Virus record (IMG/VR): IMGVR_UViG_2651869780_000020
Coordinates: 1 to 17,046 of that record
Source: a virus
Taxonomy: Duplodnaviria > Heunggongvirae > Uroviricota > Caudoviricetes
Direction: 5' to 3' (one strand)
DNA: 17,046 nt
Of the stretch, positions 949 to 14,429 are shown piece by piece (positions within the stretch are counted from its first letter, which is position 1; the number at the start of each line of letters is the position of its first letter). Below the pieces are notes generated by a model. It did no database searches. It saw only the letters and a list, made by a program, of their open reading frames with translations, and was not told the DNA's origin. A program made the translations under genes and the position numbers.

Positions 949-1038
949 TTAACCCATAACGTGCAATGGCTGTCTTTATGAGGCCTGGCACCCTATTGCC
1001 TTCCGATGGGCTGAACATCGAGTAAACAGGGGTAACAA

Positions 1039-1950: not shown

Positions 1951-3204
1951 ATGGCTAACCAATTAGCAAAAGACCTTGAAATCATGTTCGAAAACTACGT
2001 TGAAGGCTTTGAGGCCGCCTGCGTAGTTTCCCGTAACGCTAAAAAATTCCGTCCCGGTGATACAGCAATGCAGCGAGCAGGTGATGTTCTGTATCGTCCG
2101 CAGCATTACCACATGAACATTGAGGAAGGCCTAGACCTCAGCGGCAAAACGCCAACAGCACTGGTTCAGCGCCTTGTTCCTTCTGTGTTCAAGGAGCCGA
2201 AAAACATTCTGTACACTCTGGATGCGCGTGAAATGCGTGACCCGGAACATAAAACTGAAGCTGGTCGCGCCGCAGGTATGCGCCTTGCTGCACAGATTGA
2301 CTCTGACCTGATTTCCATGGTCACGCAGCGTGCTACTAACGTGATCACAATGGCTGACTCAACCACTGGTTCACAGGGTCGTGATTTGTGGAACTGTGCG
2401 GCAGGTATTGATGCCACCATGACGGCGATTGGTGTACCACAGGGTATCAACCGCCGCTCTTTCTGGAACCCCTTCAACTACAAAGACCTTGCTGGCGAGC
2501 TTGGTCACCGTGCCTATGCTCAGGGCGCAACCCTGACAGCATACGAAAAAGCGCAGATCCCTCCGGTTGCGTCCTTCGATAGCTACAAGACCGATATTTC
2601 TGGTCGTGTTCCGAAGGGTACAGCAACTTCCATTACGCTGGCAGCAGCACCTGCGCACAAGGTTGAAGCGAAAGATGCTAACGAAATGCCAGTGGATAAC
2701 CGACAGGGGACCATTACGGTATCTGCTGAAGGTTTGCAGGTTGGCGATGCGTTTACCATCGCAGGGGTGAATTCCGTACACCAGATCACCAAAGATACCA
2801 CCGGGCAGCCGCAGGTATTCCGCGTTCTGGCAGTTAGCGGAACGACAGTAACTATCTCCCCGAAAATTCTGCCGCCTGACAACGCGGATGTCGCCAGCCG
2901 TCCATATGCAAACGTTGATGCTAATGCGGCAAGTAGCGCAGCAATCACCATTCTCAACAAAAATGCCGCACCGGCTAACCTGTTCTGGGCTGATGGTTCT
3001 GTTGAACTGATGTACGGCAAACTGGCGTTCCCGACTGGTCAGGGTCCACAGGTAATGACAGCAACCACCGAGCAGGGCGCTACACTGATCATGTCTTACG
3101 CCTTCGACCACATCAAAGGCGTAACCACTGCGCGTTTCACCACTCTGTACGGTTGCTCTGTACTGGTTCCTGAATATACGGGCATCGTTATTGCCGGGCA
3201 GTAA
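1951..3204 (+). CDS. Major capsid (coat) protein, P22 gp5 family
   Basis: 417 aa. Recognisable similarity to P22 coat as recalled (e.g. RPYANVDANAASSAAITILN and FWADGSVELMYGKLAFP versus P22 RAYANVN...AVNILN and FWADDAIRIV). Position directly after scaffold; followed by a hairpin terminator. Confidence 0.9.
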   Translation: MANQLAKDLEIMFENYVEGFEAACVVSRNAKKFRPGDTAMQRAGDVLYRPQHYHMNIEEGLDLSGKTPTALVQRLVPSVFKEPKNILYTLDAREMRDPEHKTEAGRAAGMRLAAQIDSDLISMVTQRATNVITMADSTTGSQGRDLWNCAAGIDATMTAIGVPQGINRRSFWNPFNYKDLAGELGHRAYAQGATLTAYEKAQIPPVASFDSYKTDISGRVPKGTATSITLAAAPAHKVEAKDANEMPVDNRQGTITVSAEGLQVGDAFTIAGVNSVHQITKDTTGQPQVFRVLAVSGTTVTISPKILPPDNADVASRPYANVDANAASSAAITILNKNAAPANLFWADGSVELMYGKLAFPTGQGPQVMTATTEQGATLIMSYAFDHIKGVTTARFTTLYGCSVLVPEYTGIVIAGQ

Positions 3205-11102: not shown

Positions 11103-11182
11103 TTTGTTTTAGTTTTATGCTTGCTTGTATGTGTGTACAGTGTATATAATGCAAGCATACATCACAACAAAGGTGCTTGCAT
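11093..11182. repeat. Four copies of a 9-10 bp near-palindromic motif in alternating orientation: ATGCAAGCAT (11093-11102), ATGCTTGC (11117-11124), ATGCAAGCAT (11149-11158), TGCTTGCAT (11174-11182)
   Basis: Read directly from the sequence. The copies form two imperfect inverted-repeat units of about 32 bp, spaced about 56 bp apart. Copy 1 overlaps the start codon of the - strand membrane protein; copy 2 overlaps the -35; copy 3 abuts the -10; copy 4 lies between the RBS and the ATG of the 322-aa gene. Confidence 0.6.
11121..11150 (+). promoter_or_regulatory. Sigma70-like promoter for the 322-aa accessory gene
   Basis: TTGCTT (11121-11126), 18-bp spacer, TATAAT (11145-11150); RBS aggtg at 11171-11175; ATG at 11184. 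Confidence 0.55.
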
Positions 11183-11183
11183 T

Positions 11184-12152
11184 ATGACTGAAAAGAAAAG
11201 TGGCGAAGGGAAAGCTAAGGGCGGGATCGCTCGCGCAAAGTCGCTGACTAAAGAGCAGCGTTCTGAAATAGCAAAGAAAGCAGCTGCTGCAAGATGGAAA
11301 AGTAAGATTCTCAGGGCAACTCATCGTGGTAACTTTTTAGATGATTTTGGCATTGATGCTGAATGTTATGTACTGGATGACGAGTCGAAAACTGTCGTTG
11401 TTACGAAAACTGGATTATCTCAGTTGCTAGGGATTGGTGAACATGCCAGGGATTTAGATCAACTGCTTGGCGCTCAGTATATGAGCAAATACCGAGATCT
11501 AGAATTGCAGCGAAAAATGGAAAATCCCTATAAATTTCAACTTACTTCGAAGTCTAAAACCGTTCATCAAGCGTTAGGTTATGACATTACAGCAATTGTT
11601 GATATTGGTAGGGCACTAATAGAAGCCAAAGATAATGACGATCTACCACAATCACGGTTAAAGGCAGCCGCCGCAGCACAGAGACTTATTAATGCCTCCG
11701 CTAAGGCGGGAATTAAGGGGGTTGCGTATGCGCTTGCTGGTTATCGTCCAGAAGTTCAGGCTGTCATTGACGAGTTCAAAGCGTTTGTTCGTGAAGAGGC
11801 TCGTCAATATGAAAAGGAATTTCCAGATGAGCTATACGAGGAGTGGTATCGACTGTACGGCCTGAATAGGCCAGAGAAAGGACGGCCTATTCGTTTTGGG
11901 CAGCTAACCAACATGCAGATATACACCCCGCTAGCAAAGAGTAAAGGTAAAATCCTTGAACAGATTCGAGCCAGCCGAGACGAGAACGGAAAACAATCTG
12001 ATAAGTTGCATCTGTTCCTTTCTGAAATTGGTGTCAAGGCTTTGCGTCAGCATATCGGTAAGCTTCTTGGTGTCGCAGCGATGAGTGAGACAAGAGAAGA
12101 ATACGAAAAAGGAATAGAAAAGGTTTTCGGAAGAATGAAACCAGAAATCTAA
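11184..12152 (+). CDS. Hypothetical 322-aa accessory (moron) protein with a basic N-terminal helix-turn-helix-like motif; function unknown
   Basis: Long ORF with its own promoter and a strong terminator. The TTG start at 11121 in the ORF track is rejected in favour of ATG 11184 (MTEKKSGEGKAKGGIARAKSLTKEQRSEIAKKAAAARW..). The remainder is a charged, helical-looking domain. Not part of the conserved P22 structural set. Confidence 0.75.
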   Translation: MTEKKSGEGKAKGGIARAKSLTKEQRSEIAKKAAAARWKSKILRATHRGNFLDDFGIDAECYVLDDESKTVVVTKTGLSQLLGIGEHARDLDQLLGAQYMSKYRDLELQRKMENPYKFQLTSKSKTVHQALGYDITAIVDIGRALIEAKDNDDLPQSRLKAAAAAQRLINASAKAGIKGVAYALAGYRPEVQAVIDEFKAFVREEARQYEKEFPDELYEEWYRLYGLNRPEKGRPIRFGQLTNMQIYTPLAKSKGKILEQIRASRDENGKQSDKLHLFLSEIGVKALRQHIGKLLGVAAMSETREEYEKGIEKVFGRMKPEI

Positions 12153-12543: not shown

Positions 12544-12729
12544 ATGACCATAGAAGAACGCCTGAACAACATTGAGTTGAACCAAACCCTGCTTGACCAG
12601 CGACTTTCAGATCTTGAGCTTAAAGATCTTGATGCGCAAATATCAGAAGCAGAAGCCAAGCTCTCCAGCTTAAACCACCGCAAGAAGCAAATCCGCAACA
12701 GAATTACTCAGGGACGCGGAAGCTGTTGA
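12544..12729 (+). CDS. Small coiled-coil protein (61 aa)
   Basis: ATG 12544 preceded by a strong SD AAGGAG (12533-12538) at 5-nt spacing; the GTG at 12496 in the ORF track is rejected. Sequence MTIEERLNNIELNQTLLDQRLSDLELKDLDAQISEAEAKL.. is heptad-like. The 3' end overlaps the convergent 69-aa ORF by 26 nt. Confidence 0.5.
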   Translation: MTIEERLNNIELNQTLLDQRLSDLELKDLDAQISEAEAKLSSLNHRKKQIRNRITQGRGSC

Positions 12730-12913
12730 GGTGGGATGCTAGGTCTCTATCGTTAAAATCAAGGCTGCTAATCATTTCATTGTAAATGGCGTTTTTATCT
12801 TCCATTGGCAGTCTTGAGTAAACCAGACACAGAGCATATTTCAGGGAGTTTAGCTCTTTCTCTAGCTCTTCCTTGCTTGACGTTGTTGACTTAATAAACT
12901 GTTTTTTATTCAT
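12704..12913 (-). CDS. Hypothetical 69-aa protein, translationally coupled downstream of mnt
   Basis: On the - strand its ATG overlaps the mnt TGA stop (ATGA at 12910-12913). No recognisable family. Confidence 0.45.
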   Translation of the reverse strand: MNKKQFIKSTTSSKEELEKELNSLKYALCLVYSRLPMEDKNAIYNEMISSLDFNDRDLASHLNSFRVPE

Positions 12914-13161
12914 TTTGCATCCTTACCATACATGGTCTTTAGCGTCTCAACATCGTGTTCAAGATCTATCAATCGTGATGCTATAGTTGCAAGGTCTAGT
13001 GCTTGAATGTGTTTATTTTTTTCGGTCCACGCTTCAAGTGCCGCGACCATCTCAGCATTTAATGAACGAGAATTAGCCTCAGCCAGTTCAATAAGACGTT
13101 CCTTTATCTCTACAGGAAGCCTCAGATTCACTTGAGGGTTTTTGTACTTACGATCAGACAT
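12910..13161 (-). CDS. mnt: Mnt-like ribbon-helix-helix repressor (Arc/MetJ superfamily)
   Basis: 83 aa, the same length as P22 Mnt as recalled. N-terminus ..NLRLPVEIKERLIELAEANSRSLNAEMVAALEAW matches the RHH beta-strand/helix pattern of P22 Mnt (..FRMPMEVREKLKFRAEANGRSMNSELLQIV..). Divergent from arc. Confidence 0.8.
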   Translation of the reverse strand: MSDRKYKNPQVNLRLPVEIKERLIELAEANSRSLNAEMVAALEAWTEKNKHIQALDLATIASRLIDLEHDVETLKTMYGKDAK

Positions 13162-13266
13162 CGGCGCATCCTGAATAATTTTTTACCACAGGATATGTAG
13201 GTATCTATTGACTATCAATGCGTACCTAAATGCTATGTATGCGTACCACGTACAACGGAGGATGCA
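13162..13266. promoter_or_regulatory. Divergent promoter/operator region between mnt and arc (Pmnt/Pant-like)
   Basis: 105-bp intergenic region. Palindrome ATTGA-cta-TCAAT (13207-13219) contains back-to-back -35-like hexamers (TTGACT on +, TTGATA on -). Direct repeat ATGCGTACC at 13218-13226 and 13239-13247, 21 bp apart. Inverted ATCCTG/CAGGAT (13168-13173 / 13189-13194). AGGATGC precedes both start codons. Exact -10 elements are ambiguous. Confidence 0.55.
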
Positions 13267-13407
13267 ATGAAGGTAAAAACACTGCGTATGCCAGAGAAGC
13301 TAGAAAAAATTCTTGAAGAAAAAGCAAAGGAAGAGTGTCGCTCATTCAGCGCAGAAGTAATTAAACGGGTGCTGGACAGCCTGAGGAGAGAGGGGATAAC
13401 GGTGTGA
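13267..13407 (+). CDS. arc: Arc-like ribbon-helix-helix repressor (46 aa; below the ORF-track size cutoff)
   Basis: Own translation: MKVKTLRMPEKLEKILEEKAKEECRSFSAEVIKRVLDSLRREGITV. The segment RSFSAEVIKRVLDSLRREG resembles P22 Arc RSVNSEIYQRVMESFKKEG as recalled. SD GGAGG at 13256-13260. Sits between mnt and ant as in P22 immI. Confidence 0.75.
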   Translation: MKVKTLRMPEKLEKILEEKAKEECRSFSAEVIKRVLDSLRREGITV

Positions 13408-13423
13408 TTCGCTTGGATGCGGC

Positions 13424-13472
13424 AAAGAAATCAAAACAGTGAAGCCCCAACTGCGGGAACAGTCAGGGCTTC
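13424..13472 (-). terminator. Intrinsic terminator oriented for leftward (- strand) transcription in the arc-ant spacer
   Basis: Stem GAAGCCC (13441-13447) / GGGCTTC (13466-13472) with an inner ACTG/CAGT helix. On the - strand it is followed by ACUGUUUUGAUUUCUUU (complement of 13424-13440). No U-run follows it on the + strand. Confidence 0.55.
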
Positions 13473-13505
13473 GGTATCGTAAAACCACGCATAGGAATTA
13501 ACGAC
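13424..13505 (-). ncRNA. Predicted sar-like small antisense RNA, complementary to the ant ribosome-binding site
   Basis: Inferred from a - strand promoter inside the ant 5' end (see 13512-13540) plus the - strand terminator at 13424-13472. The predicted transcript of about 80 nt is antisense to the ant SD (agga 13493-13496) and start region, analogous to the P22 Sar RNA. Ends are approximate. Confidence 0.4.
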
Positions 13506-14429
13506 ATGAAAAGTATAGCAACAGCAGTATCTACTATCAATGTACCATTCCACGGCGCAGAGCTTTATGTTGTCAATCACAACGGCGAACCGTATACCCC
13601 AATGAAACCTATCGTTGAGGGAATGGGGCTAGACTGGAAATCTCAACATAAGAAGATTTCTCAACGCTTCTCGAAGGGTATGGTGGAAATCACCATACCT
13701 TCTGCCGGTGGGGTGCAAGCCATGATTTGTATGGCTTTACGAAAATTGGCAGCTTGGTTGAACAGCATCAGTCCTAACAAAGTCCGCCCTGAAATCCGCG
13801 ACAAGGAAATCCAGTATCAGGAAGAGTGTGACGATGTGCTCTACGAGTACTGGACTAAAGGCCATGTAGTTAACCCACGCAAAGCTAAAAAGGCGTTGCC
13901 GGGTAAAATCACCACTGAACAGCAGGAAGCCATTAAACAACTCGTCATGAGTCGCGGTCAGTCTCTGCCAAAAGAAAAACAGGCTAAGGCGATGATCACC
14001 ATGTGGTCGTCACTGAAATCTCATTTTGGGTGTTCATACAAAGAAATCAGCGATGAGCAGTTTACCGAAGCTCTGTCACTTGCAGCTCGCGTTCCGCTTG
14101 AAGGCGAGTTAATCGGCAAACAAGAGAAGAAAGCAAACGAGCTTTCTGCAAAAGAAGCAAACAGCCTTGTATGGTTATGGGATTATGCCAACCGCTCACA
14201 GGCATTATTCCGCGAACTGTATCCGGCGCTAAAACAAATTCAATCGAACTATTCCGGCAGATGTCATGACTGCGGTTATGAGTTCTCCCGTATTATCGAT
14301 ATGGCGAGAGATGTTTTAATCAACCATACACGAGATGTTGATATTAATGAGCCAGACGGACCAACGAATCTTTCCGCATGGATGAGACTTAAGAATAAAG
14401 AATTACCTCCTTCAGTACATAACTACTGA
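13506..14429 (+). CDS. ant: Antirepressor (Ant-like)
   Basis: 307 aa versus about 300 aa for P22 Ant. Located directly downstream of arc. N-terminal pattern (..VPFHGAELYVV..GEPYTPMKPIVEGMGLDWKSQHKKI..) is reminiscent of phage antirepressor N-terminal domains. Followed by a terminator. Confidence 0.7.
   Translation: MKSIATAVSTINVPFHGAELYVVNHNGEPYTPMKPIVEGMGLDWKSQHKKISQRFSKGMVEITIPSAGGVQAMICMALRKLAAWLNSISPNKVRPEIRDKEIQYQEECDDVLYEYWTKGHVVNPRKAKKALPGKITTEQQEAIKQLVMSRGQSLPKEKQAKAMITMWSSLKSHFGCSYKEISDEQFTEALSLAARVPLEGELIGKQEKKANELSAKEANSLVWLWDYANRSQALFRELYPALKQIQSNYSGRCHDCGYEFSRIIDMARDVLINHTRDVDINEPDGPTNLSAWMRLKNKELPPSVHNY
13512..13540 (-). promoter_or_regulatory. Psar-like leftward promoter inside the first codons of ant
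   Basis: On the - strand: TTGATA (complement of 13535-13540), 17-bp spacer, TATACT (complement of 13512-13517); the predicted start is near the ant ATG. Confidence 0.5.

Follow-up and report, generated by a model that had tools for sequence, protein, structure and literature searches.

The 17,046-nucleotide stretch of viral DNA analyzed here (the window) very probably carries, at positions 13433 to 13505 of the minus strand, the sar gene of the immI region of a P22-like (CUS-3-type, Lederbergvirus) Escherichia coli prophage, acting by the mechanism proposed for sar. Judged on its sequence, the element is a homologue and a member of the sar family, not a mere parallel to it, and it is therefore not new; the family of this RNA, where it lies, and how it acts were known already, and what this copy lacks is annotation. 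The initial annotation had pointed to a parallel with the Sar RNA of P22, and this is borne out by a match to Rfam family RF00262 ("sar RNA") at 13438 to 13504 of the minus strand (score, 76.6 bits; gathering score, 43; E value, 8.4e-15; full-length alignment to model positions 1 to 68), by the same immI gene order, and by the same register of the sar promoter (Psar), sar, and the ant ATG.

RF00262 was the sole match when the whole window was scanned against Rfam at gathering thresholds, and a permissive local scan of 13150 to 13650 (E values up to 10) yielded nothing besides sar above threshold. In addition, a purpose-built covariance model matched 13433 to 13505 at 90.9 bits, and the Rfam match, this model, and the predicted fold all support a predicted transcript of approximately 70 to 73 nt. 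The first search with a covariance model had also returned five weak plus-strand matches on the near-palindromic terminator, which were removed by a stricter E-value cutoff. The plasmid copy-control antisense RNA ctRNA_pGA1 (RF00236) was considered as a candidate and rejected: it scored 26.8 bits at 13428 to 13486 (minus strand) against a gathering score of 45, on the same terminator hairpin, and we regard this subthreshold match as a generic similarity of a hairpin plus a U-tract.

The sar locus within the immI region

The gene order of the window, namely, mnt-like (minus strand), arc-like (plus strand), ant (plus strand), and tailspike (plus strand), is that of the P22 immI region. The mnt-like repressor gene (12910 to 13161, minus strand), divergent from arc-ant, encodes an 83-amino-acid ribbon-helix-helix protein (Pfam Arc, PF03869; E value, 3.2e-10), and the arc-like repressor gene (13267 to 13407, plus strand), the upstream cistron of arc-ant, encodes a 46-amino-acid ribbon-helix-helix protein of the same Pfam family (E value, 1.2e-7), whose equivalent is named "Arc family DNA-binding protein" in RefSeq. 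The antirepressor gene ant (13506 to 14429, plus strand) encodes 307 amino acids with the Pfam domains P22_AR_N and P22_AR_C (PF10547 and PF10548), and the alignment of its product to P22 Ant begins at residue 1. These partner proteins are 32 to 56% identical to those of P22 (Ant, 56% over its full length; Arc, 33%; Mnt, 32%). The Pfam domains and the P22 identities show that the labels arc and ant, as well as the divergence of the proteins, were correctly assigned. Thus, the sar match, the register, and the fold, together with the low identities of the proteins to those of P22, support the earlier sar-like interpretation, including its suggestion that the antisense circuit would be conserved here despite the divergence of its proteins.

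A leftward promoter of the form TTGATA-17-TATACT had been noticed in the first codons of ant, and we confirmed it at 13540 to 13512 of the minus strand, inside ant codons 3 to 12. This predicted Psar comprises a -35 element TTGATA (13540 to 13535), a 17-nt spacer, and a -10 element TATACT (13517 to 13512); in a promoter scan, it agreed with the consensus at 10 of 12 positions and, besides, showed a TG-extended -10 element, TGcTATACT. Its offset from the ant ATG equals that of the annotated P22 sar promoter (29-nt span), as compared at the sequence level only. Furthermore, a TG-extended TAnnnT -10 element was present at a fixed position beside the ant ATG in 91 of 91 related loci (80 loci from an IMG/VR scan for Ant relatives, the remainder being phage and E. 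coli loci), which represent 11 Ant N-terminal classes. The residues encoded at the -10 element vary among these loci (SIA, SLA, SVA, IVA, and TIA), and the TG-extended -10 element is kept throughout, its TG being provided by an Ala codon that is invariably GCA. Part of this conservation could reflect protein constraint, since the -10 element lies within coding sequence (Ser-Ile-Ala in the window).

The second signal claimed earlier, a leftward-oriented hairpin with a U-tract in the arc-ant spacer, was likewise found. The spacer is 98 nt long, from the arc stop codon (13405 to 13407) to the ant ATG at 13506, and a terminator scan of the minus strand located in it a hairpin at 13472 to 13441, which corresponds to sar stem-loop II, the predicted intrinsic-terminator hairpin (14 bp including three G·U pairs and a 4-nt loop, UCCC). 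The hairpin is followed by ACTGTTTTGA, the tail runs on as TTTCTTTG, and a downstream U run occurs on the minus strand only. The tail from 13440 to 13424 (minus strand) is ACUGUUUUGAUUUCUUU, and the 3' flank of the hairpin in the spacer reads ACUGUUUUGAUUU / ACTGTTTTGATTTCTTTG on the same strand. Taken alone, neither signal is above chance, because a 1.2-kb stretch contained two promoter-like sites against 2.0 expected and two terminator-like sites against 1.2 expected from shuffled sequence; their combination is far above chance, as judged by the RF00262 score and the z score of the fold.

By homology with P22, the 5' end of sar would be G13505, the seventh base past the -10 element and one base ahead of the ant AUG, and both homology and consensus rules place the 3' end near 13433, in the U run at 13436 to 13433. 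These ends give a probable length of approximately 70 to 73 nt. The target, as read directly from the plus strand, is the ant translation initiation region (13493 to 13508), with an SD-like AGGA at 13493 to 13496 and the ATG at 13506 to 13508. The overlap is cis-antisense: the AGGA falls within the sar span, and stem-loop I carries the anti-SD sequence UCCU in its loop region. Thus, of the antisense RNA of about 80 nt that had been predicted across the ant SD and start codon, the covering of the SD stands, the length must be shortened, and the AUG itself is probably left uncovered. Two minus-strand open reading frames of 48 and 49 amino acids (13342 to 13488 and 13431 to 13580, respectively) overlap ant and sar; they look like opposite-strand by-products, and a protein-coding reading of them was put aside.

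Fold, strand asymmetry, and covariation of sar

The predicted transcript has a minimum free energy (MFE) of -29.8 kcal/mol, compared with -15.2 ± 2.7 kcal/mol for shuffled sequences (z score, -5.45), and none of 200 shuffles was as good. It is predicted to fold into two hairpins, a 5' stem-loop followed by the terminator hairpin, and the architecture of both the MFE and the centroid structures is identical to that of P22 sar. In the MFE fold, stem-loop I comprises RNA nucleotides 1 to 30 (13476 to 13505, minus strand) with the closing stem GUCGU.AA / UU.ACGAU. The same two hairpins were obtained when each of the 32 distinct 72-nt variants found among the related loci was folded singly (32/32). 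Although the variants fall into 10 stem-loop I sequence classes, all of these classes retain a hairpin at, or no more than 3 nt away from, the 5' end, and the anti-SD sequence is always located within the loop region of stem-loop I in the 32 variants.

Each hairpin is less stable on the plus strand than on the minus strand in all 32 variants, because its G·U pairs become A/C mismatches in the complement. For the window, the terminator hairpin reaches -21.9 kcal/mol on the minus strand versus -16.0 kcal/mol on the plus strand, and stem-loop I, a weak hairpin, reaches -5.7 versus -2.2 kcal/mol. This strand asymmetry of the hairpins, together with the presence of the U run on the minus strand only, points to the leftward RNA, rather than the arc-ant mRNA, as the object of selection.

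Compensatory changes point in the same direction as the single-sequence folds. With a plain MAFFT alignment, RNAalifold independently detected such changes in 6 of 12 terminator-stem pairs; it recovered the terminator stem only, since this alignment misregisters stem-loop I, which is displaced by a single column from one sequence class to another. In an alignment fitted to the covariance model, compensatory changes were found in 10 of 21 pairs, stem-loop I contributing 4 of its 7 pairs and the terminator 6 of its 14, and the covariation score was 0.288 versus 0.164 for shuffled alignments, a value reached by none of 500 shuffles, although these counts overstate independence and lean toward structure, given that related sequences were used and that their alignment had itself been fitted to the structure. 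In the same alignment, 91.6% of the cells assigned to pairs were paired, versus 38 to 46% when the partners were slid by one to three columns. For the terminator stem, 98% of the cells were paired. The survey (32 variants, 10 stem-loop I classes) is a modest comparative data set, and its covariation backs the published two-hairpin structure.

Proposed mechanism and alternative explanations

In P22, initiation of ant translation is blocked by base pairing of sar with the ribosome-binding site of the ant mRNA, and sar is required for proper antirepressor control and for the establishment of lysogeny (PMC12197685, PMC7968456, and PMC2629481); its length is 68/69 nt (PMC12197685). The primary work on P22 sar, as cited in PMC2629481, is that of Liao et al. 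(1987), Wu et al. (1987), and Schaefer and McClure (1997), and sar was detected again in P22 infection by a small-RNA sequencing study in 2026. Because the window has the same promoter, register, and fold and perfect cis-complementarity, we infer that the same mechanism applies to it; production of the transcript, its exact ends, and repression of ant translation are here taken from P22 by analogy. According to this model, RNA polymerase would start leftward at Psar, a TG-extended sigma-70 promoter in ant codons 3 to 12, transcription would begin at about G13505 and stop near 13433, at the intrinsic terminator of the arc-ant spacer, and the product would be an RNA of about 70 nt with two hairpins. 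By its full complementarity to the leader of the ant mRNA, this RNA would pair with that leader and occlude the Shine-Dalgarno region, so that translation of ant would be blocked while arc would be left untouched. The antirepressor would thus be kept low by sar together with the Arc and Mnt repressors, which would act on transcription.

Three other explanations were weighed against this sar mechanism, and the strand asymmetry of the hairpins and their compensatory changes disfavor all of them. Psar might work mainly by transcriptional interference, through convergent collision with or occlusion of the polymerases transcribing arc-ant, the RNA itself being of minor importance. Such interference would suit the geometry of the locus, as Psar faces the arc-ant promoter region at a distance of approximately 260 to 300 bp, and it would also suit a promoter that, in the window, is near consensus (10/12 plus TG). 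It needs no RNA structure, however, whereas the hairpins are kept by compensatory changes and are stronger on the minus strand; moreover, the loop region of stem-loop I always contains the anti-SD sequence, and for P22 the mechanism given in reviews is base pairing to the ribosome-binding site of ant. We therefore consider it very improbable that interference is the main activity of Psar.

A second reading assigns the hairpin to the rightward transcript, as a stabilizer of the arc mRNA 3' end or a partial arc-ant attenuator, and treats Psar as a by-product of the conserved Ser-Ile-Ala codons of Ant, so that no functional antisense RNA would exist. The hairpin does form on the plus strand (-16.0 kcal/mol), the -10 element is within coding sequence, and single promoter-like matches are expected by chance; but the plus-strand hairpin is the weaker one in 32 of 32 variants and lacks a U run downstream, the TG-extended -10 element survives the residue changes from SIA to SLA, SVA, IVA, and TIA with the Ala codon always GCA, and transcription of the homologous RNA is established in P22. 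It seems hardly credible, in view of these observations, that the signals serve the rightward transcript alone. To the third reading, that of an inactive relic in a decaying prophage in which the sequence is still recognizable and the regulation lost, we give almost no credence. Its basis is that some related loci have a damaged ant, with an in-frame stop at codon 52 in the IMG/VR locus L073 and a start codon changed from ATG to ATA in L088. In the window, by contrast, ant, arc, and mnt are intact open reading frames, Psar is nearer to the consensus than the promoter of P22 itself, the hairpins are perfect, and the surrounding late operon is whole. The sar region is intact in both L073 and L088.

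The proposed function of sar has a counterpart in the c4 RNA of phages P1 and P7. c4 is processed from a same-strand transcript upstream of its targets and hence is not cis-antisense; it is a functional analogue of sar and not a relative. Like sar, it is a small RNA that blocks translation of an antirepressor (ant) through base pairing around the ribosome-binding site (PMC12197685). The c4 antisense RNA of the P1/P7 immI region was also tried as a candidate for the element, and it gave no Rfam match in the whole window at its gathering score or in 13150 to 13650 at E values up to 10.

Relatives of the locus and the mosaic pattern of sar

The RefSeq annotation of P22 (in locus coordinates) gives sar at 965 to 896 (minus strand), the terminator at 896 to 933, the ant coding sequence from 966, and the sar promoter at 972 to 1000 (minus strand); the counterparts in the window, 13505 onward for sar, 13506 for ant, and 13512 to 13540 for Psar, are in identical register. 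In both, sar is positioned in immI between arc and ant, its promoter, with the same TGcTATACT, is located within the opening codons of ant, and it consists of two hairpins with full complementarity to the ant ribosome-binding site, the terminator hairpin being identical at 31 of 32 nt. The two differ in the sequence of stem-loop I, GUCGUUAAUUCCUAUGCGUGGUUUUACGAU in the window and GUUGGUUUUUCUCCAAGGAUUUACUGAC in P22, with the stem kept, and in the -35 element, which is GTGTTA in P22 and the more consensus-like TTGATA in the window. Furthermore, the U tract is AACUUU in P22 and the longer ACUGUUUU in the window, and the arc-ant spacer is 68 nt in P22 versus 98 nt in the window, as a result of which the sar of the window stays clear of the arc stop codon. 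In phage epsilon34, the sar region is annotated as in P22, by similarity.

A BLAST search with 13440 to 13560 showed that CUS-3, a phage of E. coli K1, is 100% identical to the window over this segment, and that P22 and many relatives are approximately 81% identical. The sar element of CUS-3 (CP000711) scores 84.6 bits with the Rfam model and is unannotated, lying inside a "boundary sequence" feature, and CUS-3 has an extra open reading frame of 67 amino acids between arc and sar. In the RefSeq record of E. coli strain TUM1887, the coding sequences are likewise listed and sar is unannotated. The whole mnt-arc-sar-ant block was found in approximately 100 complete RefSeq E. coli genomes at 94 to 98% identity. 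CUS-3-type E. coli prophages thus keep the complete P22 immI circuit of Mnt, Arc, sar, and Ant, and the significance of the present element is chiefly one of annotation, as the public CUS-3 and RefSeq E. coli records omit sar.

The epsilon34 genome paper stated that CUS-3 apparently has no arc and might control ant differently. The CUS-3 segment equivalent to the part of the window left of 13440 (2776 to 3182 of the CUS-3 locus) is labeled "bsq2 boundary sequence," with no arc annotated; this stretch contains an Arc-like open reading frame nearly identical to the 46-amino-acid Arc of the window and the 67-amino-acid open reading frame, which is Cys rich (2979 to 3182). Since an unannotated Arc-like open reading frame is present, the absence of arc from CUS-3 looks like an annotation gap. 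Besides, in three phages, the annotated Ant coding sequence starts upstream, overlapping arc and running through sar: at 908 rather than 974 in Kapi1, at 890 rather than 971 in GF-2, and at 884 rather than 968 in SPN3UB. In each of them, an SD-preceded ATG homologous to the P22 Ant start follows 66 to 84 nt further downstream; in Kapi1, the distance is 66 nt (22 codons).

The Rfam sar model matched 9 of 10 fetched phage loci, and the tenth, that of Edwardsiella phage GF-2, has a divergent but recognizable copy. The 32 distinct sar variants comprise 10 stem-loop I sequence classes and nine terminator classes, and in the 91 loci at least 10 stem-loop I classes are located between a near-constant Psar and a near-constant terminator hairpin. 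The combinations are mosaic: the Ant N-terminal class MKSIATAVSTIN occurs with four stem-loop I classes, and the terminator-hairpin class GAAGCCCTGACTGTTCCCGCAGTTGGGGCTTC is joined to four stem-loop I classes, five Ant N-terminal classes, and at least nine unrelated arc-side flanks. The sar terminator resembles a conserved joint linking modules that can be exchanged, and we regard this mosaic pattern as the sole mildly new observation of the present analysis. The pattern leaves room for the tentative, and in our estimate rather unlikely, idea that stem-loop I and the matching ant leader form a swappable specificity cassette for which the terminator hairpin serves as a recombination joint. If this were true, and if pairing started in the loop of stem-loop I, the sar of a resident prophage would silence the ant mRNA only in the case of superinfecting phages with the same stem-loop I class, and immI "heteroimmunity" types based on RNA would result, for which c4 of P1 and P7 provides an analogy.

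Several minor features were observed around the locus. In the mnt-arc intergenic region, an imperfect inverted repeat with 17-nt arms that are 76% complementary (13195 to 13231) has at its center two back-to-back -35-like sequences, TTGACT (plus strand, 13208 to 13213) and TTGATA (minus strand, 13218 to 13213), the latter with TATCCT 17 nt further on, and this repeat is probably the divergent Pant/Pmnt operator region. For Pant, the rightward arc-ant promoter, the plus-strand TTGACT had no convincing -10 element at 16 to 18 nt, and the scan gave the leftward, mnt-side site only. The ATG of a 69-amino-acid open reading frame (12704 to 12913, minus strand) overlaps the stop codon of the mnt-like gene (ATGA, 12910 to 12913), which suggests cotranslation with mnt; its product has no Pfam match, and its RefSeq equivalent is hypothetical.

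Downstream of ant, the tailspike-like gene (14530 to 16569, plus strand) encodes 679 amino acids, the N terminus of which resembles, by eye, the head-binding domain of the P22 tailspike. Its equivalent in TUM1887 is a RefSeq "phage head-binding domain-containing protein" and is longer (2,427 nt), and CUS-3 has an endosialidase at this position; accordingly, the receptor-binding part of the 679-amino-acid protein appears to be a swapped module. On the other side of the immI region, a gene at 11181 to 12152 (plus strand) encodes a protein of about 323 amino acids with a P63C domain (Pfam PF10546; E value, 6.8e-14), located in the variable "ant moron" between a DNA-transfer gene and immI.
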